DNA of 64,000 nt, from the IMG/VR virus record IMGVR_UViG_3300001097_000002, positions 1 through 64,000 of that record. One strand, written 5' to 3'. Shown here piece after piece: positions 19,161 through 56,564 of the stretch. Position numbers and translations under genes: made by a program. This DNA comes from a virus. The first letter of the stretch is position 1. Each line of letters opens with the position of its first letter. The notes beneath the pieces were generated by a model. That model worked only from the letters and a program-made list of their open reading frames with translations. It did not search any database and was not told the origin of the DNA.

Positions 19161-19238
19161 GTGCCCTTAGTTTAGCGGTCTAAAACACACAGCTCATAAC
19201 TGTCGAGAGCGTGAGTTCAAATCTCACAGGGCGCACCA
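19161..19238 (+). tRNA. tRNA with CAT anticodon (Met or lysidine-Ile2)
   Basis: Acceptor GTGCCCT/AGGGCGC, anticodon loop CTCATAA, GTTCAAATC, encoded CCA. Confidence 0.9.
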
Positions 19239-19598
19239 TATATTTATATTATTGGAGTTACTAATGAAAGATTTATTATTAGAAGTAATGAAGCTCAATA
19301 AAAATAACAAACACTGGACTAAAGTGTTTACAACAGAACATCCTATGTTGTATCTATTCTCACAAAACTATTACATTAAGGTTTATGAGAAAGATAGTGA
19401 TACCGCGATACTTGGCGCTATAAGTACAATTAACGATAAGTTGTTAGACACTATACATTGCCATACGGATGTAGACGCTGTAAATACAACTATAACAGTG
19501 CTTGTACATAGACAAAAAAGTATGTTATGATAAGCATATCAATTAGATGTTAAATTAATTTTTATATATTATAGTAAGTACAAGTAAAAAAAGAATAT

Positions 19599-19686
19599 GG
19601 AAGTCAGGCGAATACGGTTTGTCGCACCGGACTGTAAATCCGGCACTCACCATAGTATTTGGGTTCGAATCCCAAGGCTTCCACCA
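19599..19686 (+). tRNA. tRNA-Tyr(GTA)
   Basis: CCGGA-CTGTAAA-TCCGG anticodon arm, long variable arm, GGTTCGAATCC, CCA. Confidence 0.88.
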
Positions 19687-19690
19687 TTTA

Positions 19691-19765
19691 CGGGTCTAGC
19701 TTAATTGAATAAAGCGGCATACTATGGTGTATGTAGACATTGGTTTGATTCCAGTTACCCGACCA
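19691..19765 (+). pseudogene. Degenerate tRNA (probably Pro TGG)
   Basis: CGGGT…ACCCG-A-CCA acceptor and GGTTTGATTCC T-loop. Anticodon loop is only 6 nt (TATGGT). Confidence 0.5.
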
Positions 19766-19794
19766 CTTTTAATAATAGTAGGAGATATACAATA

Positions 19795-20162
19795 ATGAAA
19801 ACGTTTGAAGAGTATTTACAAGAAAGTAGTTCACGTGATGGGTATTTTGGTGTCCTGCCACACCAGGTGAAATACCGTTACTTGATGTTGTTCAACGCGT
19901 ATTGAGTCAAAAGAATATTGATTTTACAGTTTTTCCATCGCGTGGTCTTGGTGATACTTTTATTACAGTTGAATACACACAATATAATGAAGCGTTAGGT
20001 ATTGTTGATAAAAAACTTGCTAATTTTGAACATTTAGGTAATAAAGGTCGTGTTATTGATACCGTGGTAGTTCGCACATCGCAAGACTCACGTATTACTA
20101 ATGCTGTTTCATACACTGCTAAAAGTTCTGGTAAAGGTGTTACTAAAAAAGTAACTAAGTAA
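19795..20162 (+). pseudogene. Capsid-tagged protein gene split by a frameshift
   Basis: MKTFEEYLQE ORF stops at 19905. The -1 frame is open from about 19839 to 20162. Confidence 0.45.
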
Positions 20163-20229
20163 ATGTTTAATACGGTCATGTAGGTTAAGACTAAAGTTGC
20201 AATTGATACTTAAAATCCTACCCTAATAC

Positions 20230-20305
20230 ACTTCCATAGCTCAGTTGGTAGAGCAGTAGCCCGATAAGCTATTTGTCCCTGGTTCAAGTCCAGGTGGAAG
20301 TACCA
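20230..20305 (+). tRNA. tRNA-Ile(GAT)
   Basis: ACTTCCA/TGGAAGT acceptor, TAGC-CCGATAA-GCTA, GGTTCAAGTCC, CCA. Confidence 0.93.
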
Positions 20306-20312
20306 CTTTACA

Positions 20313-20510
20313 TAGATGTTTTAGGGATGCGTTAGTATAAGAAATCATAGTATGCGGAATAATTAACCATTACATACTAGGATTGGATATTAGGCGTTAA
20401 TGTCTGTCTGTTGTACACCAGAAACACATTAAACTTGAGCTTATTACAACATTACTATGATGGTAGTGGAGATGTTCCAATATGACGGGCACGCATCCTT
20501 AAAACATTTA
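20313..20510 (+). ncRNA. Unassigned structured RNA of about 200 nt
   Basis: 20-bp closing stem (20313-20332 / 20491-20510, two G-U pairs) enclosing several nested hairpins; directly follows tRNA-Ile. Confidence 0.6.
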
Positions 20511-20814
20511 CTTTTTATATTATTGGAGTTATATATGATTTATGTTCTACTAGTTATTTTTATTGGATTTTGTATTGCGTGTTTGGTAACTTTTATGCGT
20601 AGTGAAAGACCCTCAAAAGTTATGTGTAAAAAACATATCAGCAAACAGATTGCTAAGGTTTTGAAAAAAGAACAGAAGTTTGCCAATGCTGCTAAACGCG
20701 CTAAAAATAAAGGAGATTTTAATTTAGTAGCAGTTCATCGCTTGAATGAAAGTATCTTCTTTAAAAAGCGTAGAGAGTTAGAAAAAGATTTAGATTCAAT
20801 GATGTAACAATTAT

Positions 20815-20900
20815 GGAAGGTAAACCAACGAGGTGTTGGAGCCGCCTGCTAAGCGTACTGTCTGTAACCGGATACATTTCGATTATGTTGCCTTCCTCCA
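20815..20900 (+). tRNA. tRNA-Ser(GCT)
   Basis: GGAAGGT/GCCTTCC acceptor, CTGCTAA loop, long variable arm, CCA. T-arm somewhat atypical. Confidence 0.8.
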
Positions 20901-21148
20901 TATTTAGGATTATATTATGAACGCTCTATTGTTACACGTTAAAAAACTTGTAAATACTATCAAAAAGCGCTATGATAAAAGAATGTATTGCGTTATTACT
21001 ACGCCATTAAATACTTATAGAGGCGTTGATTATAGTTCATTACGTGTTACAGTTGATACTTTGCAATTTGACTATTACGGTGCTACTGTATACGTAAGTA
21101 ATGACACCGTTAAGATTAGTTTAATACACAACCAAAGGAAATAATATA

Positions 21149-21391
21149 ATGCTATCGTTTGAAGAATATATCAATGAAAGTAAAAGTGCAAAACTAGGTC
21201 AGGCTGACAAACTGTCAAAGGCAAATGAGTTTAAAGATGAAGTTCGTTATACTGCCACTGTTGGTGATGATGAATATGAAGTATTTGTCGCTAAGTCAAC
21301 AAGTCTTGATAAAAGTGAAACTCTAGCTACACTTAAAACTAAGAAAGTTGCTGTTAATCGCACAACAAAGAACAATATTACAGTTCGATAA
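21149..21391 (+). CDS. Putative internal head protein (capsid-targeting tag)
   Basis: MLSFEEYINE N-terminus followed by a small basic body. Confidence 0.6.
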   Translation: MLSFEEYINESKSAKLGQADKLSKANEFKDEVRYTATVGDDEYEVFVAKSTSLDKSETLATLKTKKVAVNRTTKNNITVR

Positions 21392-21398
21392 TTAATAA

Positions 21399-21474
21399 TG
21401 CTTAGTAGCTCAGTTGGTAGAGCAGTAGACTGTTAATCTATTGGTCGCAGGTTCGAGCCCTGCCTAAGCAGCCA
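21399..21474 (+). tRNA. tRNA-Asn(GTT)
   Basis: TGCTTAG/CTAAGCA acceptor, TAGA-CTGTTAA-TCTA, GGTTCGAGCCC, CCA. Confidence 0.95.
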
Positions 21475-21572
21475 TTTTAAAATTAGCTTTAGGTAACGAT
21501 GTGTATTATGTTTTAAGGCACACCCTAAGGACAATGGTTCTACTAGTCCCATGTCTCAATACTAGTAATTAC

Positions 21573-21648
21573 GCTGGAATAGCTCAGTTGGTAGAGCAGG
21601 GAACTTGTAATTCTCAGGTCGTGAGTTCAAATCTTACTTTCAGCACCA
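21573..21648 (+). tRNA. tRNA-Thr(TGT)
   Basis: GCTGGAA/TTTCAGC acceptor, CTTGTAA loop, GAGTTCAAATC, CCA. Confidence 0.93.
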
Positions 21649-40570: not shown

Positions 40571-41680
40571 TCACTCGTCATTACCTAAAAAATCATCGCC
40601 ACCATCCCAATCATCGCCACCACCTAACATAGTTTCATTAGTATCAACTTCGTCGTGAATTAGTTTACCACTGCTAATTTGATACATAGTTTCCACGTCT
40701 GAATGGAATTTCTCTTCTGCAAACAAAGGACCCCAGAATTTAGAACTATTGGTATCTTTGGCGCGCCACTTCTGGTCTTCTTGTACACCTTCAATAACTC
40801 GACTATACCAACCATTTGATGGTTTTTTAATATAACCTACATTCATGCCCACTTCTAGCATACCAGTATACTTATTCATACCACCGTCAAAACGCATTTC
40901 GATTGGAAACTTAGATTTCTCTTTACAGTAACGACTTTTCTCAACGTTCATAATCAAGTTAAATCCAGTAATTTCTTTACCTTCTTTTTCTTGTTGTCGT
41001 CCCATAATGAACACTTGGTCACTTGAATACATGATACCTGAACCACCAGAAACAACAGCTTTTGAAAACAGTTCCATTGTTTGATATACATGCGCTACCC
41101 CAACCATAACAATTTTCATGATACGCAAGTAAGGTGTGACAATACGTGTTAATGATTTTAGTTCTTTAGCACGTGTCATATCAGCTTTGGCTTTACCTTC
41201 TAGTGCATCCTCTGCTTCTTTCTTACTTGCTAAGTTACCTAAGCTGTCAATATAGATAAACACTTTCGCACCTGGATATTCTTTCTTAATCATATCAAGT
41301 TGTTTAACAAGGTCAAACTTCAAGTTTTCAATGTTAAGAAGTGGCATATGCAAGATACGTGAAGTATCAATATCCAAACTGTCAAAATATGATTTAGGTG
41401 TACCGAACTCACTGTCATAAAATAACATGATAGCATCAGGATACTTGGTCATATACGCTTTCGCGCACACGTTAGACAGTACACTCTTACCATGTTTACT
41501 AGGACCCGCAAACAATGTCAAACCAGGTTTTAGTCCACGTCTTAAACTACCAGAGAACGCTAAATTCATTAGCGGAATATCAAGTAGAACATCCTCTTCG
41601 TCAAAAAATACACTGTTATCCAAACCATCAGTGCCTTCAATAATACTGTTTTTCTTTAACGCTTTTAGCATACTACTCAT
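40571..41680 (-). CDS. uvsX: RecA-like recombinase
   Basis: AGPSKHGKS, FYDSEFG, DSLGNLASKKE, DMTRAK, VSGGSG. Confidence 0.96.
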   Translation of the reverse strand: MSSMLKALKKNSIIEGTDGLDNSVFFDEEDVLLDIPLMNLAFSGSLRRGLKPGLTLFAGPSKHGKSVLSNVCAKAYMTKYPDAIMLFYDSEFGTPKSYFDSLDIDTSRILHMPLLNIENLKFDLVKQLDMIKKEYPGAKVFIYIDSLGNLASKKEAEDALEGKAKADMTRAKELKSLTRIVTPYLRIMKIVMVGVAHVYQTMELFSKAVVSGGSGIMYSSDQVFIMGRQQEKEGKEITGFNLIMNVEKSRYCKEKSKFPIEMRFDGGMNKYTGMLEVGMNVGYIKKPSNGWYSRVIEGVQEDQKWRAKDTNSSKFWGPLFAEEKFHSDVETMYQISSGKLIHDEVDTNETMLGGGDDWDGGDDFLGNDE

Positions 41681-41689
41681 ATAATTCCC

Positions 41690-43181
41690 TTAAAAGAATG
41701 TTTTTCTGTTATGTGATTTCTTCTTGCCTACGCTTGTATCCTCAGTGGTTACATTAGCGCTTGCAACTAGACCATTATCAATATTTTCTCCATCACCAAA
41801 CTTAAATATTGAACCTGAATGACGAATGTTATAATTTAATAGTTTAGTAAATGATTCAAGCGGACGCATAAACGTCACTTCAAACATATTTTTTCTGTCT
41901 ATGTAATTGTCAAGATTAAACTCCTTTGGTAATTCATCAGGATAACCAATTACAGTTGAGTTAAGTGGATTTCCGTCTACTAGGTCAAGGTACTTAATTT
42001 TACTGCCGCTTTTGATTATGGGGTGGTTCTTAGTATGGATATCACTACTTCTAACAAAGTTGTTATATGTTATAGCAGCGCGTACATGTTTAGGACAACG
42101 CTTGATAGGTTGATTGTTTTCGTCACTCCATTTCTCAATCCCGTTAACACCTTTTGGATATGCAATTTTATTAGGATGTAGGTTTTTATAATCATTTCTA
42201 AATCCCTTAACATACTTGCGCAAACCGTCCTCGTCGCGTGTAACCATATATTTAATACATTCTGTTAGGCTGTTACGTATGACCGCAGGTGTAGAAGTCC
42301 TATTGGTTTCAATACCAAGCATTTTAAGTTTAGGCTCTGTATAACGTACGTGCTCCATATCATATACGTTTAATATATAGTTCTTTTTAGCTCGGAAAAT
42401 AGCACAATCACAAATTGCCTCGCGTTTCATTATCAATCTGTTTTCCATACCGTTTAAGTATTCTGATAACTCACCGTAAGATTTTTCTATAAATGGTTCA
42501 ATATTATCATGTACGTATTCGTCAATTATTGTTATTACTTCATTAGTATCAGTATTGACTGGTAAACTGTCAACCAATGGTGCAACTGTAAAATATAGAC
42601 TATCAGTGTCACCATAAATTGTATAGTCTATATTATTAGTTTTAAATTGTTCATTTAAAAAACCATTAAGCTTTTTCTCCATATATTTAATTGCCAATTG
42701 ACCTGTAGACGTAACAGCTTCTGCTATCTCACGTTTGAAATAACGAAAGCCTTCATTTCCAATCGCACCATAACCCAAGATATTAATTCTGAACCGATAA
42801 CTAACCTCAGAATAAAAGTATTTTACTACTTTTGCAACATGTCACCATGTTGATTAGACTATATCATGACCCATTCTCCAGGGCCCTCACCGTTTCCAAT
42901 ACTCTTGTATTGTACTCTACTAACTGCGATTAAGCGCTTTCGATAGTCGTTGCACGCATCCCGTAGGACTTTGTACATGATTGTCTTATTGTGGCTCAAT
43001 AAGAGTTCCCATGTTTAGATGAGTTATTCACTTACACATTACCATGTAAGGCAGCAGTCTTGTTTTACTTGCTTTTACTGTTTGCAAGAATCTTGTAGGC
43101 GTATTGTAGTGCGTCTTCTCTGCTAACATCGTTCTCTAATTCAGCTATGCGTTTATTAATAGACGCAATATCTTTATACAT
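41690..43181 (-). CDS. gp43: DNA polymerase B, C-terminal subunit (motifs B, C, thumb); exons 43181-43077 and 42775-41690
   Basis: Exon 1 MYKDIASINKRIAELE…QYAYKILANS plus exon 2 GYGAIGNEGFRY…YGDTDS…KKNY rebuilds motif B as KILANSGYG. Confidence 0.9.
42776..43076 (-). ncRNA. Group I self-splicing intron (ORF-less, 301 nt) in polymerase motif B
   Basis: 5' exon ends in U and the intron ends in G. Core elements present: AACATGGGAA (P), CAATCATG (Q), GCAACGACTA (R), GATATAGTCT (S). IGS ACTGCTG pairs with both exons. Confidence 0.9.
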
Positions 43182-43290
43182 ACTTTAAATATTCCTTATC
43201 TTTTGATACGATTGGATTATCGTAATTAAATATGTAACGTTTATCAGTATATTGTTGATACATAATAAACTTAATATCACTTAATTCCAT
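43174..43290 (-). CDS. 38-aa ORF wedged between polymerase subunit genes
   Basis: MELSDIKFIMYQQYTDKRYIFNYDNPIVSKDKEYLKYV; overlaps the upstream stop and the downstream start. Confidence 0.4.
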   Translation of the reverse strand: MELSDIKFIMYQQYTDKRYIFNYDNPIVSKDKEYLKYV

Positions 43291-43999
43291 CTTTAATCAT
43301 ATCCTCTCTGAGAGCATATAACTTTTGTAACTCTCTTTCGCTGTCTTTCATACCACTCTTAATAACACTACGAGTATCAAACAAGTTTTCCATAGTGGCT
43401 GCAATAACACCAATTTTGTCTTTTGAATACAATGTACCATTAGCAGCAAGGCAATAATCTTTTTCGTGTGCTATTTTGGTACTATATTTCATATCTATCA
43501 TACTGTTTAATATATCGTCTACGTGCTCCTTTGATTTCATCACAAGAGTTTCAGCGCTCATGTTTAGCATCATTATGATAGATGGATACAAGCTTTTTAA
43601 ATCGCCACTAACAACCCAGTCAGTGCGTCCTAATACAGGTTCTTTAACGTGACCACCCATATAACTTTCACCGCCCTCAGCGTATACTTTAGGAGGTATG
43701 ACAATGCTATCTCTATCAAGTCTAGCGTAAATCATATTGTCCCATGGTTGCACGGTTGCAAAAATATCACTTGGGTTACTACGGCTTACGTGTGCAAATG
43801 ATAACGCCACCTGAATAAAGTTTAGCTTGTTATCAAGTTTAGATATTAATACAGTATCAGTCTCGTTATAGTCAATAAATGTGTTGAAGCTGTCCTGTTT
43901 AACTTTTTGGTTAACATCATCATATAATTTCTTAAGCTGTTCAAAACTCAACTTGTCAAGATGGTTCTCGACAAGCATTTCATACTTTTTTAAATTCAT
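43277..43999 (-). CDS. gp43: DNA polymerase B, middle subunit (ExoIII, motif A, first fingers helix)
   Basis: FIDYNETD (ExoIII), YMGGHVKEP, DLKSLYPSII (motif A), AANG..Y.K…G.I. Confidence 0.92.
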   Translation of the reverse strand: MNLKKYEMLVENHLDKLSFEQLKKLYDDVNQKVKQDSFNTFIDYNETDTVLISKLDNKLNFIQVALSFAHVSRSNPSDIFATVQPWDNMIYARLDRDSIVIPPKVYAEGGESYMGGHVKEPVLGRTDWVVSGDLKSLYPSIIMMLNMSAETLVMKSKEHVDDILNSMIDMKYSTKIAHEKDYCLAANGTLYSKDKIGVIAATMENLFDTRSVIKSGMKDSERELQKLYALREDMIKDGIK

Positions 44000-44377
44000 A
44001 TATCACCAATGTTAGATGTTAAAAAAGGGCACCTAATTATTATAGGCGCCCATTAGTATAACATAAAATTTTATAATAGCAAGATATAATTAGATTTGCA
44101 ATTTCAATTTATTAGCAGCACAATACGCACGCATAGCTTCATCAAGCAAAAGTTTATTATAACCAATCTCTATTGAATACATGTCATTTACTAGCACCAG
44201 CGGCACTAAATTACCTTTCATATCAACATTAACCTTTGCGATAGGTTTTATATTAGTATCAAAAGTTGTCTTAGTTATATATTTCATATCATGGTTTTTA
44301 TCAAAATGATATAGAATGATAAAATCATCTGCGTTTGGTTTGTAGCTCATATAATACTCCAAATAATAAATTAGTTT

Positions 44378-44992
44378 TTATAGATAGTCTACGATAGTAT
44401 TACCTGGCGTTCCGAACATAATTTTCGTATGTTGACCACCACCAAGTTCACGACTGTAAAAATACTCTGCTAGCTCTGGATACTTCTTAGGATAAGCCGG
44501 GTCGACATGTTCAGTGTTCAGTTTCTTACCTAGAATATCGCGTGCGTCATCAACTGTCTGTGCATACTTAATCGCTTCTGACATACCAATTGAGCGCACA
44601 ACAAATTTGAGCATACCGGCACTAGTTTCACCCATTGAACGGTCAAATTCATTAGATACCAAATCAGCCAACGCAATCGCGCCTTGCTTTGTTTGGTTTG
44701 TGAAACTAGCTACTGACTTACGACCATTTTTGTCTTTGTACAACTTACCGGCAATGATTTCACCGTTTTTTCGAATCAGTTTCCAAAACGTAATATTAAG
44801 CATATCTTCAGGACTATCAAAACCAGACCCTTTAATACCACCAATCTTAGCATATGAGCGTTGAACTAAGTCCCATACTACTAACTTGTGTTTTTCTTTC
44901 TTCTCGTTATCACCAATGATATTAATGTAACGTTCGTTAAGGTCGTTACCACTATCGCGTTCATGTAAGTAATCTTCAAATGCAACTGTCAT
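44378..44992 (-). CDS. Putative internal head protein (capsid-targeting tag)
   Basis: MTVAFEDYLHE…DLNE N-terminus. Confidence 0.55.
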   Translation of the reverse strand: MTVAFEDYLHERDSGNDLNERYINIIGDNEKKEKHKLVVWDLVQRSYAKIGGIKGSGFDSPEDMLNITFWKLIRKNGEIIAGKLYKDKNGRKSVASFTNQTKQGAIALADLVSNEFDRSMGETSAGMLKFVVRSIGMSEAIKYAQTVDDARDILGKKLNTEHVDPAYPKKYPELAEYFYSRELGGGQHTKIMFGTPGNTIVDYL

Positions 44993-45014
44993 TATTTATT
45001 CCTTTCTTAGTTTA

Positions 45015-45539
45015 TCAAGATAATACTGGATATTTATACTTTCCGACGTCCTGAATCCCATCAATTATATCAGGGGTCCGGCAAATACGATGGTGTCCAT
45101 TGTCAAAGTATTTAACGTCATAGTTATCAGGGAAGTTATCAAATACGGCTTTAACTCCATTGTAATCAATGACTTCATCATCTTTCTCAACCAATACAGC
45201 AACATCTGCCTTACTTGGAATGAATTTAGTATTGTCATCGCAAATCTCAGGACGGTTCAATGTTGGGTTAATACAAGGACTAATCAATACCGCATTATGT
45301 CCATATTTTACACTCATTGCGTTTGCAATGTAAGCGCCCATACTGTGACCAACAACAATAACGTCTTCATAATCACTCAAATCTTCAACCGCTTTACTAG
45401 CAATTGCGAGGGCGTTCTCCAAGCCATCATCATAGTCGATTGCAACAGCAACCTTATTAGTGAAAATGATATTAGTGAATTTGTCAGTATTAACACTACT
45501 GCCATATCCGTGAAAAAACAAAATGATAGAATCTTTCAT
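45015..45539 (-). CDS. YqiA/YcfP-like alpha/beta hydrolase (esterase)
   Basis: FHGYGSS, GHSMG nucleophile elbow, DEVID, GHH. Confidence 0.85.
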   Translation of the reverse strand: MKDSIILFFHGYGSSVNTDKFTNIIFTNKVAVAIDYDDGLENALAIASKAVEDLSDYEDVIVVGHSMGAYIANAMSVKYGHNAVLISPCINPTLNRPEICDDNTKFIPSKADVAVLVEKDDEVIDYNGVKAVFDNFPDNYDVKYFDNGHHRICRTPDIIDGIQDVGKYKYPVLS

Positions 45540-46115
45540 TAACTTATCTCCTTAAAGATTTATTATAACATAATATATACTATGGCACAACCGTAGAACC
45601 CTTACAATTGCGCGTATGTGAAATCATCAAGTTCATCAATAACACATTGTAAACCATTATCTTTGAAACGGTTGTAAAAGTAATTAACTTCCTTTGAACT
45701 CAAATTATACCCTATGGATAAATCATGAAGAAACTTAGAAGTTAGTTTTGATTTCTTGGAATTATACTCGCACACGGCCGCTTTAAAGTCATCTTCAGCA
45801 ACGACAACTTCGCGCACTGAATAATCAATAACAGTTTCGCGGACAATGGCTTTTTTAACGCCTAACATATCATAGTAAACATATGCACCTTCAACCGTTT
45901 CGCGCATGCCTACAACTCGACCTAACTTGTAATAGTAGATGGTTGTGAACATTGACTGTGTTGGTACTGGTGTATCGTTCATTGTATATTTATCTAAGTT
46001 ATTCATAATAATTCTCCTATCATTTAAACTGTTTCTCAAAACTACCACTAAATTATATAACAGCCACAAAAAAGTGTAAAGCTATATTACATAACTTTAC
46101 ACTCAATGATTTAAA

Positions 46116-46547
46116 TTAAATTGTTTCGACTGATTGATAATCAATAACAGTAATAGGTACAGGTTTAACTTCAAAGTATTCAGTACCGTCAGTATCAAAT
46201 CCGTAATAACTTTCGTAATACCCGTGACATAACAGATATCTACCACTAGGCATATGTTTTACTACTTGTTCCCAATGGTCACCGTCGCCTTCTCCGCCTT
46301 GACGCCTAACAATTTCGTATAACGTTTTTTCATCAAACGCACGTAACTTGTCTTCTAGCGCATCAGTACGTTCTCGCATTTCTACTCTATCGTCACCGTT
46401 AGTTTCAACAAAATCACTAAATTGATACATAAATTCGTCTGCAAAAAATACTCTAAGCTCATTCATAACATCTTTAAAAGTTTCAAATGATAATTCTTTA
46501 CCATGTACCATTTCTTCAAGTGTGCTGATAACGTCTTCGAATTCCAT
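46116..46547 (-). CDS. Hypothetical protein, local paralog family (C-terminal EV.P…Y)
   Basis: …GYYESYYG…YFEVKPVPITVIDY. Confidence 0.6.
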   Translation of the reverse strand: MEFEDVISTLEEMVHGKELSFETFKDVMNELRVFFADEFMYQFSDFVETNGDDRVEMRERTDALEDKLRAFDEKTLYEIVRRQGGEGDGDHWEQVVKHMPSGRYLLCHGYYESYYGFDTDGTEYFEVKPVPITVIDYQSVETI

Positions 46548-46602
46548 AGTGTTTTCCTTTTTGATAAAATTATATGTTACTAGTTTTTAACTACATTGTC
46601 AA

Positions 46603-46950
46603 TTATAATATATAGCAATCTGCACTATCAAGATGATACTTATTAACCATTACTTTTTCCTGTATTACTTTATCCCATTTATCATGTACCCACATTTCAC
46701 TATACAGTTCTTCAAAGCGCGATTGTTGATAATACTCGCCACTGACTTTATCAACATATATGTTAAAGTCAAAATAACTGCCGTGTTCAAATGACTCTAC
46801 ATATTCCATGCGCTCGTCAAACGCATTGACATCATCCATGAGCAAATAGCAAACAGTTACATCATATGCAAACTTTGTGCGTAATACCAGTAAGACTTCT
46901 TGTGGTAGCATATATTCACGGTTAATAAAACGATTATATAATTCTCTCAT
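46603..46950 (-). CDS. Hypothetical protein, same local family
   Basis: SGEYYQ…WDKVIQEKVMVNKY. Confidence 0.5.
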   Translation of the reverse strand: MRELYNRFINREYMLPQEVLLVLRTKFAYDVTVCYLLMDDVNAFDERMEYVESFEHGSYFDFNIYVDKVSGEYYQQSRFEELYSEMWVHDKWDKVIQEKVMVNKYHLDSADCYIL

Positions 46951-47489
46951 AACATAAGCCTAAATGTTGGTGTATTGGGTAACAGTAACTTCAGCGGTTT
47001 CGTATTGATATAATTGCACCAAATCAATGCAACAACCATCCATCAACACAAATAACATATCATCACGTGCTAGTTCTTTGTTGTTTAAGAAATCGTTAAT
47101 TAAGTTTTTCATAATGTTCGACACTCGTATTGTACATTTACAAGCTCTACTTTATCCCAATACTCCCAGTTTTCTGCTGTGCCATTAAGTCTATATAAGA
47201 AACCAAATGATTTAATGATAATATAGTTATAAGGCCCTTCCATTGATACGTCAATAATTTCAATGGTGTCAAGTGAAATAACATGATGCATATATTTACA
47301 TGCGTCTGTCATCAATTTCTTATCTCTTACATCAAACAGAACATTATTGTTTAAAAATTCAGCACCACTAAACTATGTTCAACAGACATTCTGGCGCACA
47401 CGATGTGACGTTGTTCTTTTGATAATCCTGCTAATTCATAACTACTCATAATCATTCTCCAATAATAAAATTTATATTAAACAGTATTG

Positions 47490-47861
47490 CTAGTACGGAG
47501 TATATACTGTTATTGTTTTTTCATGCGGCATAACTCTAGTCCAATTACCTATTTCGTATGATAGTGTATCGTATATCCTGTTAGGATACGTAAACATATA
47601 ATATACATCAGTATGTATACATTGCACAACTAAACAATCCTCTTCATCATCATCGCTACCTATAGACTCATATTCAAACATATTCCAAAATGCTTCATAT
47701 AGTAACGAATGGTTAACAATAATATCATCAACGATTACCGTCTCAATTGTATCAGCATCATTTAAATCAATTTTTACAAGCGTGTTTAACAAATCAAGCA
47801 AGTCAATATTTTGCATTCTTTCATTTGCTAAAAACAAACCTAGTCTATCTAAAATATTCAT
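47490..47861 (-). CDS. Hypothetical protein, same local family
   Basis: TDVYY…WTRVMPHEKTITVY. Confidence 0.5.
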   Translation of the reverse strand: MNILDRLGLFLANERMQNIDLLDLLNTLVKIDLNDADTIETVIVDDIIVNHSLLYEAFWNMFEYESIGSDDDEEDCLVVQCIHTDVYYMFTYPNRIYDTLSYEIGNWTRVMPHEKTITVYTPY

Positions 47862-48769
47862 AATGAAAACTCCAATGATAAAATTTTACGATAATAGAAC
47901 GGGTCAAATGCATCAATAATATCTGAGTAATTATCAATAGCAAACGCTCTAAAGAAACCACTTGCTAAGTCAGTACATACACGCATCAATGCCCACATAA
48001 AAGAGCTTCTAGCGTAATATTCTTTACTGTCATTTACTAGTTTTGGAATGATGCATCGTTCACTAGCAATCACGTAACACTCTTCTAATACAGTTTGCAC
48101 TTTTTCTAATTGTGTGAACTTATTCCATAAATGCTTGTAACATAACACTTCTCCGTTCTTCTGCATTTTATTATACATGGGTTTATCATTATGTGCAAAC
48201 ACTTCATGCAAATAATCATGTTCGATATATTTCTTAACACCATCATCAAAAAAATGTTCTTTAGTAACATTTAGTTTAGGCAACTTTTGCGCACCAAGTC
48301 GCAAGTCTGTATCAATTCTTTGCGTTCTGATTAACTCGCTCACTGTGTATGCGCTTGTTCCATATTGTTCATCATCAGTTAAACCACGTACTCGGTTTAA
48401 CTGTACGAGGTCACTCATATGCTTATCCCATTTACGCATACGTTGGTGGATATGACCACGTTTGATAATGTATAGCATAGTTGTATCAGCAAGGCTAATA
48501 GGCGCCCTGTAATAGGCGTTATATAGCTCTGCTAGTGTATTATCATATGCTACCAATAGTTCAATACGCTGCTCACCATCATTAAATGGGATAATGCTGT
48601 CTTTAGATATCTTATCCCTAAAACGATACGGAATGTCTTTTGGCATAACCACAACATCCAAATCAGCTTTTGTTCTATCATCAAGAACAGTAATCGCTTG
48701 GCTACCAACAACAATACCGTTATAAATACCGTTACTATGTAACAGCGCTTTTATATCATGAATATTCAT
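47858..48769 (-). CDS. Putative nucleotidyltransferase-fold protein
   Basis: N-terminal VGS.A…ADLDVV (Pol-beta-like GS/DxD); C-terminal HDYLHE.FAH…PMY…EECYVIASER…GFFR. Confidence 0.7.
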   Translation of the reverse strand: MNIHDIKALLHSNGIYNGIVVGSQAITVLDDRTKADLDVVVMPKDIPYRFRDKISKDSIIPFNDGEQRIELLVAYDNTLAELYNAYYRAPISLADTTMLYIIKRGHIHQRMRKWDKHMSDLVQLNRVRGLTDDEQYGTSAYTVSELIRTQRIDTDLRLGAQKLPKLNVTKEHFFDDGVKKYIEHDYLHEVFAHNDKPMYNKMQKNGEVLCYKHLWNKFTQLEKVQTVLEECYVIASERCIIPKLVNDSKEYYARSSFMWALMRVCTDLASGFFRAFAIDNYSDIIDAFDPFYYRKILSLEFSL

Positions 48770-49037
48770 AAATCACCCTTGTTACTGGTTTAACTTCATA
48801 CCATTCTTGTTCGTTGAATATGATGTGTGTACCATTGCGTGTATGTTGATAATAGCCGTTTTGTCGATAATGTTTACCATCATATGTGATAATCATATAC
48901 GCTTGACTATCAGTCAATATTTCTATAGCCGTACATTCAGCGCGTTCAACCATGGTATCATTAATCATGACACCATATTCAACGCTTGCGTGAACTAGAT
49001 GTTTATTGAGTTTATCCAAAAATTCGTCCTGTAACAT
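48756..49037 (-). CDS. Hypothetical protein, same local family
   Basis: DGKHYRQNGYY…WYEVKPVTRVIYEY. Confidence 0.55.
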   Translation of the reverse strand: MLQDEFLDKLNKHLVHASVEYGVMINDTMVERAECTAIEILTDSQAYMIITYDGKHYRQNGYYQHTRNGTHIIFNEQEWYEVKPVTRVIYEYS

Positions 49038-49509
49038 AATCCCTCCAATAAAAAAGTGACATACGAAATCATCTTATGCCACAATTATAACAAATTATTG
49101 ATGCGCTGTAAAGGTCTAAAACAAATCAACTATATTCTCAGAAAGTATTCTTGCGAAATCACCATCTAACGGTTTTGAGTTATACACCATATTGTGCTTG
49201 ATTTCAGCAATTGACAATCCTGACGGTTTAGATAGTTCTACTGCTAATGCGTTAACATTTCGCAGCGCAACATCATTAATTATATTATCCTCGTTTTCTG
49301 CGCAATACTCCCATAATGTCATCAGTAATTCAGTAGTCATCATTTCAGCATATGCTAAGTTTTTAAACTGATAAGACATAACAATTGCTCTGGCGGTTGG
49401 CCTATACATTGTAACCGATACACCACTAAAATTTGATAATTGCATCGCCACTTCTATTTGATATTGTAGGCTAACAATCAAGTCGCCATCATCAAACTTA
49501 ACAATTTCT

Positions 49510-50709
49510 TTAAATGTCATTGTTCTCCTCCAACATCATATCAAGTCTTGTGGCAACCATAGTTCTAATCCTTGCCCATCGGTCTTTTTCTGGTAGTTCT
49601 TCAATGTTTGTTTCTTCTGGTAGTTCTTCAATGTTTGTTTCTTCTGGTATATCATACACACCACAATACAAGTTCATTAGACTGTCTTTGTATTCGCTAT
49701 AATTTACTTTTTTCTCGCCAAGCTCAACATCAGAAATATGGTCAAGTGTATATCGTTCTTGCTTAGCCTTTGCGTACTGTTTATATAATGCCATATAGTC
49801 TAAATGAGTAAGACCAAAGATATTATATTCTAATGATGGTGCTCGCTTGTTTTCTTTAATAACGTTCTTACCGTATGCACTAAATGGACTTAGTTTATTA
49901 GTAACAGCGTTACCTACAATCTTTCTAGCGCGAGTTACAAGATATGGTATATCAAATAACACACCAAACCAACTAGTGATAAAGTCAAACTGTTCGTCTA
50001 CAAAAACGTTGATAAATGCCGTAATCAGTTCTTTCTCATTTCTACATTGTAGATACTCAATATCCGATTTTCCAGTATACCCTTTTAATCCAAGTCCGCC
50101 TGTTTTAACAATGTTATGTCCAACGATAACTTGATAGGTGATACTAAGAATTTCAGCAATTGCATCCTCGGGTTTCGGAAAGCCGATGTTCTGGTCAGCA
50201 TACGTAGAGTCTTTATACCAAACCATTTTTTTATAGAACGGGTCCATCACTTTAATATCAGCAAGATTATCGAAGTTTTTAATTTGTTTGTAAAATGCTT
50301 CTTTAGTTGGACCCTTACCTTCTTTATATACAACGGTGTCGAAATTCGTATATGTAAAACCATCACCATGATTAACTTCAATATCAAAGGATATCGTTTT
50401 ATACAAAGGTTCGTCCACGCTTACTTCTTCATACTCCTTTGATATAAATTGCTGTATAGGTGAAGTGTTTCCGAATATATTTTCCATTTGGTTGTTGTGT
50501 ACGAAATCATTAAGCTTATATATAGTATCAAATTCGATACGTTTTAACTTGTCACCATACAAACTAATATAGTCTCCACTTATACTTTTTGTGAATAGTT
50601 CATATGGATAGTTTTTTACAATCTCAATATGACGTTCACCATCTTGTATATAACGATGAAACAGCGTGTCGCCCATTGTTCCCACGAACGTATAATACCG
50701 CTTACTCAT
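49510..50709 (-). CDS. gp43: DNA polymerase B, N-terminal subunit (N-domain, ExoI, ExoII)
   Basis: SFDIEV (ExoI), ITSW…FDIPYL (ExoII), LDYMALYK…YTLDHIS..ELGEKK. Ends before ExoIII with a non-polymerase tail. Confidence 0.92.
   Translation of the reverse strand: MSKRYYTFVGTMGDTLFHRYIQDGERHIEIVKNYPYELFTKSISGDYISLYGDKLKRIEFDTIYKLNDFVHNNQMENIFGNTSPIQQFISKEYEEVSVDEPLYKTISFDIEVNHGDGFTYTNFDTVVYKEGKGPTKEAFYKQIKNFDNLADIKVMDPFYKKMVWYKDSTYADQNIGFPKPEDAIAEILSITYQVIVGHNIVKTGGLGLKGYTGKSDIEYLQCRNEKELITAFINVFVDEQFDFITSWFGVLFDIPYLVTRARKIVGNAVTNKLSPFSAYGKNVIKENKRAPSLEYNIFGLTHLDYMALYKQYAKAKQERYTLDHISDVELGEKKVNYSEYKDSLMNLYCGVYDIPEETNIEELPEETNIEELPEKDRWARIRTMVATRLDMMLEENNDI
49588..49649 (-). repeat. In-frame 27-bp tandem duplication (EETNIEELP x2)
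   Basis: TTCTGGTAGTTCTTCAATGTTTGTTTC twice plus a partial third copy. Confidence 0.95.
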
Positions 50710-50747
50710 TTATAATCCTTAATAGTTAACAGATATACAATTATCAT

Positions 50748-51248
50748 TTAGTCGAACAGATTCTCATTCCATTCACGATGCCCTTCCCTAAATGCCATAT
50801 TCGATTGTGTTTCTCGAACAGAAACTCTATAGCACCACACATTTTTAGCAACTTCTTTACCAAACGCTTCTTCGATAAAAATACCGTTAATGTACTTGTA
50901 CACGAAGTCAGCGATTGATTCACAACCAGTATGCTCAACTTCAGTAATTTTAGCAATACCTAGTTCACCTAATGCTTTAATTTGGTTGTACATTGGGTCA
51001 TCACTACTTAGCAATAAAGTATGGTCAAACCATTCCTCCAACTTTTCTTTAAGTGGTTTCAAACCACCGTATTCTACTTGTCCCCAATTACGTGTATCTA
51101 ATTCATTTGAACCAAAATATAATTTAAAACTAAAACTATATCCATGTATTTTATTACAGTGTGAATCGGCCCTCCATTGTCTGTATGCACACGGAAAAGC
51201 ATCGACATATTCTTTCGTGACTGTGTATTTGTAATTTATGTTATTCAC
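50748..51248 (-). CDS. queD: 6-carboxy-tetrahydropterin synthase (QueD/PTPS family)
   Basis: SHCNKIHGYS, FDHTLL, TGCESIA, VSVRET. Confidence 0.85.
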   Translation of the reverse strand: MNNINYKYTVTKEYVDAFPCAYRQWRADSHCNKIHGYSFSFKLYFGSNELDTRNWGQVEYGGLKPLKEKLEEWFDHTLLLSSDDPMYNQIKALGELGIAKITEVEHTGCESIADFVYKYINGIFIEEAFGKEVAKNVWCYRVSVRETQSNMAFREGHREWNENLFD

Positions 51249-53613: not shown

Positions 53614-53802
53614 CATTAAATAAGTATAAAACTAAAAGCGATATAGCTTATGTTATATCGCTTTTCGGGTTGACTAATTTTTGGTTATATGTTAAATTAC
53701 TATGTAAATACGCACATAATCAATTACTATGAATGCCTTTGTCAATTCAACCCAAACTATAAAAATATTTCTTTTAGTAAATACAATAAAAAGGAATATA
53801 AA

Positions 53803-54792
53803 ATGGTTTACTACACTTACGAGATACAGTGCAATACAACAAACAAGCGTTATATAGGTTCGCGCATTACTGCAAACAGAGTTGATATTTTAGACGGGTA
53901 CTACACATCATCAAAAGTAGTTGCGCTATTAATAGAAAAACATGGCATTGATAATTTTAGTGTGATAGGAACTAAACTACACGACACACAAAAAGAAGCG
54001 ATTAAATATGAAAATATCCTGTTACTGAACGCTAAAAACAATAGGCATAAGTACTTAAATATTAATTTTAGCAGTAGTGTTAATGGAGCAGTAATTAAAA
54101 CACAAAGCCATATAAAGATTACTAATACGAAAACAAACGAATGTATATACTACCCTAAAAATGTTTCGCTGCCAAAAGGGTGGATAAAAGGTACTAACTG
54201 CAAACCACCTTCGAGAAAAGGGTTTAAGACGTATTATAATACTGAAACAGGTATTACACAGATACTTGGGCCACATGATGATAAAGTTGGTTACGTGCAA
54301 ATTACAGCTTATAAAAAGCTATTAAAAAATAAAATGAAATCTCAAAGGGGTATACGATGCGTATGGATAACAAATGGTACCAGTAACACTAAAATATACA
54401 AAGATGAGAAACCAAGAAAAGAATGGTGGTTTGGTAAAACGTCTAAGGCAACAAAGCATATTATAACAAACGGATATGAATCTAAGTGGACCAAACGTAC
54501 TGATGAAATTCCAGATGGATGGAAGAAAGGAAAACATTATAAAACGTTTAGTACTAAAGGTATGATTAGAATAACTGACGGATTATCAAACAAAATGATA
54601 AACTCCAGTGAAAAAGTACCGGAAGGATGGTTTAAGGGCAAAGCAAGTAAAAAAATATACATATATGATAATGTCACGTTTTTAAACAGAAAATTATTAC
54701 TAGAGTATCTTAATATATCTGCCAACACGTTTAACTACAATCAATTAAAAAATAAATACGATGGTATACTAGTCGTCAAGGAAAATATATGA
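53803..54792 (+). CDS. Seg-like GIY-YIG homing endonuclease with repeated ITNG…P.GW modules
   Basis: YYTYEI…KRYIGSR…YYTSSK…E…YLN. Start re-assigned to 53803 (AAGGA RBS in a hairpin with GTAAATA). Confidence 0.82.
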   Translation: MVYYTYEIQCNTTNKRYIGSRITANRVDILDGYYTSSKVVALLIEKHGIDNFSVIGTKLHDTQKEAIKYENILLLNAKNNRHKYLNINFSSSVNGAVIKTQSHIKITNTKTNECIYYPKNVSLPKGWIKGTNCKPPSRKGFKTYYNTETGITQILGPHDDKVGYVQITAYKKLLKNKMKSQRGIRCVWITNGTSNTKIYKDEKPRKEWWFGKTSKATKHIITNGYESKWTKRTDEIPDGWKKGKHYKTFSTKGMIRITDGLSNKMINSSEKVPEGWFKGKASKKIYIYDNVTFLNRKLLLEYLNISANTFNYNQLKNKYDGILVVKENI

Positions 54793-56564
54793 ATATAAAG
54801 ATACACTACTATAATGAAATATATATGCGTATTGAAACTGAACGTAGCATTGAATATGAATTGCGTGATGAATTTTCATTTTTCGCAAACGGTTATATGT
54901 ATAATAATAAGTTCAAGAGTGGACAATGGGATGGTAAAATACGCTTGTATAACGGGCGCGACAAAACGTTATACGTTGGTTTACTATTTGATTTATATAA
55001 GTTTGCTAAAAATAACGGCTATACAATCACTGTAAACGAGGATGATAAAAATCAATTCAAACCGTCCGTTGTACTTGATGACGCATGGATTGAGCGTTTT
55101 AATAATGGTATGTCTTTATATCCATTCAAAGAATATCAAGAAAAGGCTTTTATTCAGGCTATCAAATATAATAAAACGCTTATCCTAAGTCCAACAGGTA
55201 GTGGTAAGAGTTTCTTGTTATATGCTATCGTTCGTTACTTGATTGACTGTGGTCACGTGGGTGGTAAGAAGCGTATGCTCATTAACGTTCCAAATATTGG
55301 TTTAGTTACTCAATTACTATCGGACTTTAAAGAATACACCACTGATGGTTTTGATATCGAGAACTACATTACCCAAGCGGGTGGTGATAACGTTGAAGAT
55401 GATAGCAAACCAATTGTTATCAGTACGTGGCAGACTTCTATGCGTAAACCACAAGAATATTTTGAGAGTTTTACCGCATACGCGCTCGATGAAGCACACC
55501 AAGCAACTGCTAAAGAAATCACCAACATTATTGACAAACTTGAATTTTGCAAGTTTAAAATCGGTATGACTGGCACACTTGACGGCACCTCAATGCACGA
55601 ATTAGAAATGAGAGCGCGGTTTGGTAAACTGTATAGAGCCGCAACTACTAAGCAATTGATGGATAGTGGTGACCTTGCTAAGCTTGCAATTGATGCTAGA
55701 GTTATAATGTATGGCGAGGACGATATCAAAGCGCTACACAAGGAGATACGTGGCAAAACAGCGGTATTAAAGTATAAGGCTGAGATTGATTATATCGTTG
55801 AACACGAAGGTCGTAACAAATATTTAATGGATACTGCATTTGCCACTGATAAAAATACATTGATGCTTTTTAACTATGTTGATAAACACGGTAAGGTTTT
55901 ACTCGAGAAAATGATGCCTTTACAAGATGAACATTGCAAACGTGTATACTTCATATATGGTGGTGTTAAAGGCAACGAACGTGAAGAGATTCGACAATTG
56001 CTTGATAAAAAGCCTCCTGTATGGTACGACATTTATGTAAGCGACAATGAATTTATTCGCATTCGTGGGTCAAAAACTATTACATTAACAGATGGTAAAA
56101 CAGTAAGTGGTTACGATTTACAGCTTCACAAGAAATATGATATATGTAATGAATGGTTGAGGACTGTTATCGAGAACGAATTACATTACAATACCATTTC
56201 ATATAATGACGAAGTAAATTACAAATCCACAAAAACTGTTGTTAAACGCGGGTCATGCATTTTGTTAGCGTCATATGGTACACTGACCGTGGGTATTAAT
56301 ATTAAGAATTTACATACGTTATTATTATGTCACCCTGTTAAAGGTCAAATACGGTTATTACAAAGTATCGGGCGTATCCTACGTAAGACGAATGATAAAA
56401 ATGAGGTAACACTTATTGATGTTGTTGATAACTTAGAAAAGAAAACCGCTAAGAAAACAAGCAAAAATACGCTACTAAAACAGTTTTTAACACGTTTAGA
56501 AATATACGAAAAGCAAGAGTTTGATTACAATATTAGTAAAGTATCATTAGAAAATAACCAATAG
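54789..56564 (+). CDS. uvsW: UvsW SF2 DNA helicase
   Basis: WDGKIRL, SPTGSGKS, DEAH, GMTGT, ASYG…GINIKNLH, QSIGRILR; about 80-aa insertion in the second RecA domain. Confidence 0.95.
   Translation: MNIKIHYYNEIYMRIETERSIEYELRDEFSFFANGYMYNNKFKSGQWDGKIRLYNGRDKTLYVGLLFDLYKFAKNNGYTITVNEDDKNQFKPSVVLDDAWIERFNNGMSLYPFKEYQEKAFIQAIKYNKTLILSPTGSGKSFLLYAIVRYLIDCGHVGGKKRMLINVPNIGLVTQLLSDFKEYTTDGFDIENYITQAGGDNVEDDSKPIVISTWQTSMRKPQEYFESFTAYALDEAHQATAKEITNIIDKLEFCKFKIGMTGTLDGTSMHELEMRARFGKLYRAATTKQLMDSGDLAKLAIDARVIMYGEDDIKALHKEIRGKTAVLKYKAEIDYIVEHEGRNKYLMDTAFATDKNTLMLFNYVDKHGKVLLEKMMPLQDEHCKRVYFIYGGVKGNEREEIRQLLDKKPPVWYDIYVSDNEFIRIRGSKTITLTDGKTVSGYDLQLHKKYDICNEWLRTVIENELHYNTISYNDEVNYKSTKTVVKRGSCILLASYGTLTVGINIKNLHTLLLCHPVKGQIRLLQSIGRILRKTNDKNEVTLIDVVDNLEKKTAKKTSKNTLLKQFLTRLEIYEKQEFDYNISKVSLENNQ

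Follow-up and report, generated by a model that had tools for sequence, protein, structure and literature searches.

Introduction

In the T4-related phages 25, 31, 44RR, 65 and 133 the DNA polymerase gp43 is split into two chains, gp43A and gp43B (Petrov et al. 2006 and 2010, as summarized in PMC3061061 and PMC2988022); for phage 25 the two chains were found to purify together and to be active (PMC2988022). A comparable fragmentation affects the NrdA of Aeromonas phage Aeh1, encoded as NrdA-a/mobE/NrdA-b, where the enzyme in its fragmented form needs insertion-derived tails to be active (Crona et al. 2010, PMC3045599). In PhiKZ, the products DNAP-N and DNAP-C form a stable 1:1 complex with polymerase and exonuclease activities (Basu et al. 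2026 preprint, PMC13648687). Rhodothermus phage RM378, which we checked directly, encodes a 349-amino-acid (aa) exonuclease piece, including the ExoIII motif EYNAVD, and a 522-aa polymerase piece 58 kb away. Here we analyze a gp43-type locus of the IMG/VR virus record IMGVR_UViG_3300001097_000002, in which the homology to gp43, a family-B DNA polymerase (PolB), is spread over three genes, called parts 1, 2 and 3 in the order of the protein. The window, i.e. the whole stretch of DNA analyzed, comprises the first 64 kb (64,000 nucleotides, nt) of a 96.9-kb viral contig from a hypersaline-lake metagenome; the phage is T4-like and uncultured, and its genome is estimated to be about 43% complete. 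An earlier note on this DNA, made from the letters alone, had proposed a non-covalent trimer whose added helices act as docking devices. It had also mentioned fingers-tip gp43A/B splits in T4 relatives, in agreement with the five phages listed above.

Results

The three products are collinear with gp43 and keep the catalytic motifs

Alignment of the three products, which the earlier note had put forward as a check, revealed a collinear coverage of RB69 gp43 and also of an intact 1010-aa relative, with all the catalytic motifs kept. On PHROG 262, parts 1, 2 and 3 cover positions 7-304, 276-493 and 524-851, respectively. The idea that the homology stops and restarts without overlap is roughly correct, but one short stretch of unsplit polymerases is covered twice, by the SLMNLY helix in part 1 and by the QLKKLY helix in part 2. 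Part 1 aligns to residues 2-306 of RB69 gp43, matches PF03104 (1.6e-17) and contains the exonuclease motifs ExoI (FDIEV) and ExoII (FDIPY), so that its assignment as the N-terminal domain with ExoI and ExoII was confirmed. Part 2 aligns to residues 301-494 and carries ExoIII (YNETD), motif A (DLKSLYPS) and the first fingers helix, again as had been claimed. The remaining polymerase motifs, KILANS/GYG (motif B, in its spliced form) and YGDTDS (motif C), belong to part 3, and both PF00136 and PF03104 scored above their cut-offs. At ExoII (window 49954-49977, minus strand; residues ~245-252) part 1 reads TSWFGVLFD. The catalytic Asp is retained, and the usual Asn is replaced by Phe; the five closest sequences have Phe here, two others have Ser or Ala, and the remaining ones have Asn.

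The break separating parts 2 and 3 is located between the two fingers helices, at about residue 494 of RB69 gp43, and the downstream cistron has its own start, which places it among the fingers-tip gp43A/B splits. Ribosomal bypass over the 95-nt spacer was considered and rejected: no frame-keeping match of take-off and landing codons was found, and a ribosome-binding site followed by an ATG is present. A homologue of the middle piece (P0018, 240 aa, 57% identical) has the same two ends, indicating that this piece also exists elsewhere. Breaks at the fingers tip were observed as well in jumbo-phage contigs of 381 kb (L004 10004-11938, L011, L012 and L013), where a gp43A-type piece of 644-659 aa ends at this point; the next open reading frame (ORF) is unlike a polymerase C-terminal piece, which must therefore be encoded elsewhere in these phages.

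A group I intron interrupts motif B of part 3

The span 43181-41690 had been described as one gene. It measures 1492 nt, which is not a multiple of three, and is not a single ORF: two exons and a group I intron had been missed. The intron matches Rfam RF00028 with 61.8 bits (cut-off 50; E 3e-15) over the full model, positions 1-253, and the z-score of its fold is -2.65. In the intron-less relatives (67-76% identical), KILANSGYGAIGN is read at the intron site and KILANSGYGAIGNEGFRYF runs uninterrupted across the junction. Because these relatives are continuous through motif B, the splice junction is fixed. Removal of the intron restores the reading frame and the motif B sequence KILANS/GYGAIGN, exactly as in the intron-less relatives. 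The second fingers helix, motifs B and C and the thumb, all of which had been assigned to this span, are present once the intron is removed, and the resulting part 3 comprises 396 aa with motif B, motif C, the thumb and the conserved C-terminal sequence ...KKK..NRKTFF. We infer that the 301-nt element self-splices from motif B; since it interrupts this motif, RNA splicing would be needed for part 3. The gene system consists in all of three genes and four coding segments.

The intron was matched when 700 nt were scanned alone and was overlooked when the whole window was scanned with Rfam (gathering thresholds, default filters). The database gene call for exon 2 (P0195, 362 aa, TTG start) is without half of motif B. 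For annotation, the lesson is that automated calls record a protein with a partial motif B and that a default scan does not reveal the intron.

Parts 1 and 2 are separated by accessory genes and by expression signals

About 5.5 kb of unrelated genes had been noticed between parts 1 and 2, and this region indeed contains 11 ORFs on the same strand. Pfam and PHROGs name just two of their products, a DUF7275 protein and a small alpha/beta hydrolase, and no match to an endonuclease family was obtained with these two resources for the 10 larger of the 11 ORFs. The first ORF of the gap begins at 49520, inside part 1, whose last 11 nt it shares; GGAGGAG precedes its start. The terminator-like hairpin reported upstream of part 2 was found as well; a promoter-like sequence TTGCTA-16-TATACT precedes it, and a GGTGAT ribosome-binding site follows it.

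These features bear on whether the chains could be joined after transcription or translation into one polypeptide, by a large or trans-spliced intron, a split intein or ribosomal bypass. The presence of a true group I intron in the same gene system lends this idea some weight. Nevertheless, a Rfam scan of 43200-51000 at E <= 1 gave nothing, and a large intron between parts 1 and 2 was rejected. An intein or split intein was also rejected: in accordance with the earlier note, Pfam finds no intein family in any piece, the 60-aa tail of part 1 and the head of part 2 (~36 aa) are predicted to be helical, and the junction has no terminal His-Asn plus Cys/Ser/Thr. Furthermore, the stop codon of part 1 is overlapped by the start of the next gene, and part 3 is provided with an ATG and a ribosome-binding site of its own. 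In the IMG/VR locus L032 the two corresponding genes, of 335 and 604 aa, abut (the stop lies at 1182 and the next frame opens at 1183), leaving no space for an intron. We consider joining of the chains extremely unlikely.

The tail of part 1 is predicted to dock on the head of part 2

The homologues of part 1 (n = 11; 32-81% identity, 327-399 aa) all stop at the same point. Their tails have the form ...LMNLY.G.Y.I - linker - L..KDRW.RLRT..., in which L372, D376, W378, R382 and T383 are invariant. The head of part 2, about 36 aa long, is predicted to be helical. The complex of parts 1 and 2 was then modeled. It obtained an interaction prediction score from aligned errors (ipSAE) of 0.87, the best of three controls being 0.00; 58 of 80 solved complexes attain the mark set on this score, against 2 of 110 mismatched pairs. 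Over three runs at least 95% of the contacts agreed, and the predicted local distance difference test (pLDDT) of the partner was at least 79. The best-defined contacts of the model connect residues 381, 382 and 385 of the tail with residues 25, 26, 29 and 30 of the head, a region with no counterpart in the solved RB69/T4 structures. The remainder of the modeled interface rebuilds the exonuclease fold, and part 1 makes in total ~260 modeled contacts with part 2. The modeling proposed by the earlier note for the trimer thus gives, for the pair formed by parts 1 and 2, a predicted binding in which the tail touches the head.

The earlier note had suggested that proofreading could depend on a separately expressed part 1. 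With 5.5 kb, a hairpin and a promoter-like site lying between them, parts 1 and 2 could be expressed differently, and part 1 might then be a dissociable, separately regulated proofreading subunit tuning fidelity during infection. Against this, the N-terminal domain carried by part 1 and its ~260 modeled contacts point to an obligate structural partner, which is probably required for folding and not only for editing. In addition, the corresponding genes are adjacent or abutting in relatives, so that separate regulation is not general to this split. Such a regulatory subunit therefore appears unlikely.

The ExoII/ExoIII break is old and widely shared

The distribution of the break was examined in 1.84 billion representative proteins, split states being assigned by alignment. 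About 24 clusters stop 59-69 residues past a conserved SYxLD anchor with a homologous basic helix (e.g. RWCRMR, RYARLRT, KWCLMR), 118 clusters continue straight into ExoIII 20 residues past the anchor, and 9 clusters hold an in-frame insertion of ~70-100 residues at the ExoII/ExoIII site, in which tail and head are fused. The intact 1010-aa enzyme of two IMG/VR loci (L014 and L018) is one of these nine, with an insertion in the order tail, linker, head. The helical extensions are missing from T4/RB69 gp43, as the earlier note had remarked, and also from the polymerase of Acidovorax phage ACP17, but they are not restricted to split enzymes, being fused in frame in the nine unsplit clusters, the intact 1010-aa relatives among them. 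Since they occur in ~24 split and 9 fused clusters, the 'docking helices' are a recurring module and not an invention of this phage. Likewise, a split through the proofreading site, which had seemed unfamiliar, occurs in the ~24 clusters; we found no paper on an ExoII/ExoIII split of a T4-type PolB or on a group I intron in gp43 (Petrov et al. 2006/2010 via summaries).

The same break is present in Variovorax phage V45v66 (GenBank PV558790, unverified, unannotated), in which a 335-aa piece ending with ...KDRWARMR... is followed, after ~280 bp, by a 610-aa piece with the matching head at its start. In the related phage ACP17 the gene is intact (854 aa) and has no tail/head module. In a quick FastTree tree of 291 N-terminal columns, from which the insert was excluded, the sequence of the window falls in an all-split clade of six (support 95). 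Elsewhere on the tree, split forms stand beside unsplit sisters with supports of 96-100, one supported trio contains all three states, and at least 20 state changes are required. A single origin fits this pattern less well than a shared module repeatedly gained or lost. The ExoII/ExoIII cut is old and widely shared, and it is common in environmental T4-like phages.

The closest relatives of part 3 (P0196-P0200; 67-76% identical, 621-624 aa) are unbroken, the part 2 head being continued by the fingers, motif B and the rest of the protein up to the C-terminus. P0005 and P0200 each derive from a 37,686-nt contig, and P0006 and P0199 each from a 26,457-nt contig; as homologues of part 1 and of parts 2-3 are found on contigs of equal length, the polymerases of those phages would be made of two chains. 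Because these closest relatives have neither the fingers split nor the intron, both are derived and recent in this phage.

An insertion after ExoI matches the borders of an HNH cassette

Part 1 contains an in-frame insertion just after ExoI, and at this site two near-identical phages (L020 2044-6153 and L014 10001-13033) differ from each other. In L020 the polymerase gene is cut right after ExoI, giving 137 aa, a 270-aa HNH endonuclease (PF01844) and 936 aa, and the endonuclease is bordered by two new peptide ends. In L014 only two residues are present at this site, and the polymerase is intact (1010 aa). For a mobile 'genes in pieces' element, the two phages make a clean comparison of presence with absence. 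Both halves of the part 1 insertion match the two new peptide ends of L020, the downstream half with 45% identity over 42 aa (E 3e-10). We read it as the scar of such a cassette, from which the endonuclease would have been lost and the ends fused.

Assembly and genome context

The earlier note had raised the possibility of a mis-assembly, which was not borne out. Logan contigs, obtained with an independent assembler, are identical to the window at both breaks, with zero differing letters and an even depth of 13.5-17.8. One of them extends from inside the part 1 tail, over the stop codon, 4.8 kb into the downstream genes of the gap; a second spans part 2, the spacer, the intron and part 3 together with the hairpin. 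The exact part 1 protein and the exact part 2 protein are each recorded from 4 contigs. A chimeric contig or a collapsed repeat would be compatible with the metagenomic source, with the finding that one DNA run and no RNA run contain the stretch (the DNA run being probably the source sample, hence not independent), and with the Logan contig ends, which fall at 44688-44710 and at the 27-nt tandem repeat of part 1. Yet these contigs span the stop of part 1 and the region from the hairpin to part 3 without differences and at even depth, identical proteins come from 4 contigs, and the boundaries are common to relatives, so that we give an artefact next to no credence. No match was obtained by megablast of the 9-kb stretch against phage records, nor by exact-peptide scans of viral contigs using P0001 and P0002.

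Using PF00136 and PF03104, no other PolB was found on the 96.9-kb contig. The earlier suggestion of an intact gp43 elsewhere thus receives no support from the contig, which covers only ~43% of the genome. With such a coverage, the three pieces might be decaying remnants, a working polymerase being provided by the host or by a gene outside the contig, and the replacement of the ExoII Asn by Phe would agree with decay. Several observations argue against it: all the catalytic carboxylates and motifs A, B and C are intact, relatives with as little as 32% identity share the boundaries and have open frames, a clamp-binding-like sequence is conserved at the C-terminus, and UvsX is encoded directly downstream, as in other T4-like replication modules. 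Decay is consequently very unlikely.

The features of the locus and of its surroundings are collected in Table 1. The polymerase-UvsX gene order is the same in phage ACP17, where genes for QueD and GTP cyclohydrolase lie just downstream of the polymerase and UvsX genes. The QueD-like gene adjoining the polymerase in the window hints at 7-deazaguanine chemistry tied to the replication module. On the other strand, the 367-aa ORF next to the helicase gene may be a further footprint of a mobile element in the replication module.

Table 1. Features of the split polymerase locus and of neighboring regions, in window positions.
Feature	Position	Strand	Remarks
Part 3 exon 2, 361 aa + stop	41690-42775	-	rest of motif B (GYGAIGN), motif C (YGDTDS), thumb, KKKSHNRKTFF tail
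Group I intron, 301 nt, ORF-less	42776-43076	-	5' exon ends with U (AGU), intron ends with G (CUUG)
Part 3 exon 1, 35 aa	43077-43181	-	second fingers helix and first half of motif B, ends KILANS
Spacer between parts 2 and 3, 95 nt	43182-43276	-	AAGGAA 10 nt before the part 3 ATG; site of the fingers-tip split
Part 2 gene, 240 aa	43277-43999	-	head helix (residues ~14-35), ExoIII (Y44, D48), motif A (D133), first fingers helix
Gap between parts 1 and 2, 5.5 kb	44000-49509	-	11 same-strand accessory ORFs, including those for a DUF7275 protein and a small alpha/beta hydrolase
Terminator-like G+C-rich hairpin	44051-44027	-	9 pairs (6 G-C), then T6; 27 nt upstream of the part 2 ATG
DUF7275 gene, largest in the gap	47858-48769	-	PF23940, E 1.5e-47; phrog_2141; unknown function
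Part 1 gene, 399 aa	49510-50709	-	N-terminal domain, ExoI (D109, E111), ExoII (D253), C-terminal tail
Part 1 tail, residues 340-399 (60 aa)	49513-49692	-	SLMNLY helix, linker, basic helix KDRWARIRT...
Perfect 27-nt tandem duplication, 2.3 copies	49588-49649		doubles PEETNIEEL in the tail linker; one copy in relatives
In-frame insertion of ~61 aa just after ExoI, residues ~115-175	50185-50367	-	matches the two tails around the HNH gene of L020
UvsX-like recombinase gene	40571-41680	-	starts 10 nt past the part 3 stop
QueD-like gene	50748-51248	-	phrog_2389, E 4.7e-34; directly upstream of part 1
367-aa ORF	53689-54792	+	weak PHROG 'homing endonuclease' match phrog_314, E 3.6e-9; no Pfam hit
DNA helicase gene	54789-56564	+	start overlapped by 4 nt by the 367-aa ORF
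tRNA cluster, five to six genes	19161-21648	+	Met, Tyr, Ile, Asn, Thr and a weak extra Rfam hit at 19690-19763

Discussion

The best reading of the gene structure, the motifs, the intron match, the conserved boundaries and the distribution of states on the tree is a replicative gp43-type PolB made of three non-covalently assembled chains and encoded by four coding segments; we estimate its probability at about 0.8. Chain 1 would provide the N-terminal domain, ExoI and ExoII; chain 2, ExoIII, motif A and the first fingers helix; and chain 3, translatable only after splicing of the intron, the second fingers helix, motifs B and C and the thumb. The proofreading site would be completed over the interface of chains 1 and 2 and the polymerase site over the interface of chains 2 and 3, while the tail helix of chain 1 would pack on the head helix of chain 2 at the ExoII/ExoIII break. 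The docked trimer proposed in the earlier note is therefore retained in outline, as the motifs are intact, the boundary is kept to ~32% identity and docking is predicted by the model, with three corrections: the helices were not added in this phage, the gene structure includes an intron that had been missed, and part 1 is probably required for more than proofreading.

Several points weigh against this reading or against the history attached to it. We infer the separate chains, the splicing and the activity from the nucleotide sequence. The complex score may partly reflect the likeness of the pair to the solved single-chain RB69/T4 structures, and the job was run with our own alignments A1 and A2. 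The ExoII Asn is Phe in this subclade, and proofreading could be weaker. As the contig covers ~43% of the genome, an intact polymerase copy could lie in the remainder. No homing endonuclease was found at the ExoII/ExoIII gap in the window, in V45v66 or in L032, so that a mobile origin of this break is suggested by the scattered tree, which is a quick one with many weak forks, and by analogy with the ExoI cassette.

The tail/head module is shared by many T4-like polymerases that are not related to one another and was therefore most likely brought in by a mobile insertion at the ExoII/ExoIII site, after which it would have been inherited vertically in the clade of the window. The 5.5 kb of accessory genes would have been collected in the gap later, the fingers-tip split and the intron are recent, and the in-frame scar at ExoI would be the trace of a further, older invasion. 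We propose more tentatively, at rather less than even odds for the proposal taken as a whole, that the tail/head pair and the ExoI pair are portable 'clasp' modules of mobile endonuclease cassettes, that the locus has suffered four independent invasions (the fused ExoI scar, the ExoII/ExoIII split, the fingers split and the motif B intron), and that it encodes the first natural three-chain family-B replicase in which both catalytic centers are shared. If this is true, clasps enable such elements to interrupt the active sites of an essential polymerase while leaving it functional, and the sharing of sites between chains could permit control or exchange of proofreading at the level of subunits. 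According to the three-chain reading, one enzyme shares its proofreading site between two chains and its polymerase site between two others. The ExoII/ExoIII cut, with its conserved clasp-like helices, offers a natural test case for the tolerance of replicases to fragmentation, for the neutralization of damage caused by mobile elements and for the design of split polymerases.

Among known systems, the gp43A/gp43B enzymes are likewise T4-type PolB, and they have in common with the window the break at the fingers tip, here between parts 2 and 3, and a downstream piece with its own start; the window adds a break in the exonuclease domain, giving three chains, and the intron in motif B. The fragmented NrdA of Aeh1 is the closest mechanistic precedent. 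In both cases an essential enzyme is cut at its active site with no RNA or protein splicing joining the pieces, and the tails, which in Aeh1 NrdA are interaction domains, are missing from unsplit homologues, in the case of the window from RB69 and ACP17, although nine clusters hold the tails fused in frame. The two systems differ in the enzyme concerned and in the gap of the window, which is without an endonuclease gene. In RM378, a distant T4-like phage, the exonuclease and polymerase pieces are also encoded apart, but the cut comes after ExoIII and leaves the proofreading site on one chain, whereas in the window it falls between ExoII and ExoIII. PhiKZ resembles the locus in that its two-gene PolB is split within a helical insertion specific to its lineage, to whose fold both chains contribute (PMC13648687). 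The PhiKZ cut, however, lies in the palm after motif A, the four exonuclease carboxylates are on one chain, and the insertion is unrelated. In the published natural splits that we examined (fingers tip, Methanothermobacter palm, RM378 and PhiKZ), the exonuclease site is on one chain and none has three chains; the ExoII/ExoIII cut is missing from these accounts. V45v66 and the ~24 metagenomic clusters have the same ExoII/ExoIII break as the window, with homologous tail and head. They differ from it in having two chains, genes that are adjacent or nearly so, no fingers split and no intron. The three-chain state and the intron are thus a fresh variation on the known theme of 'genes in pieces'.

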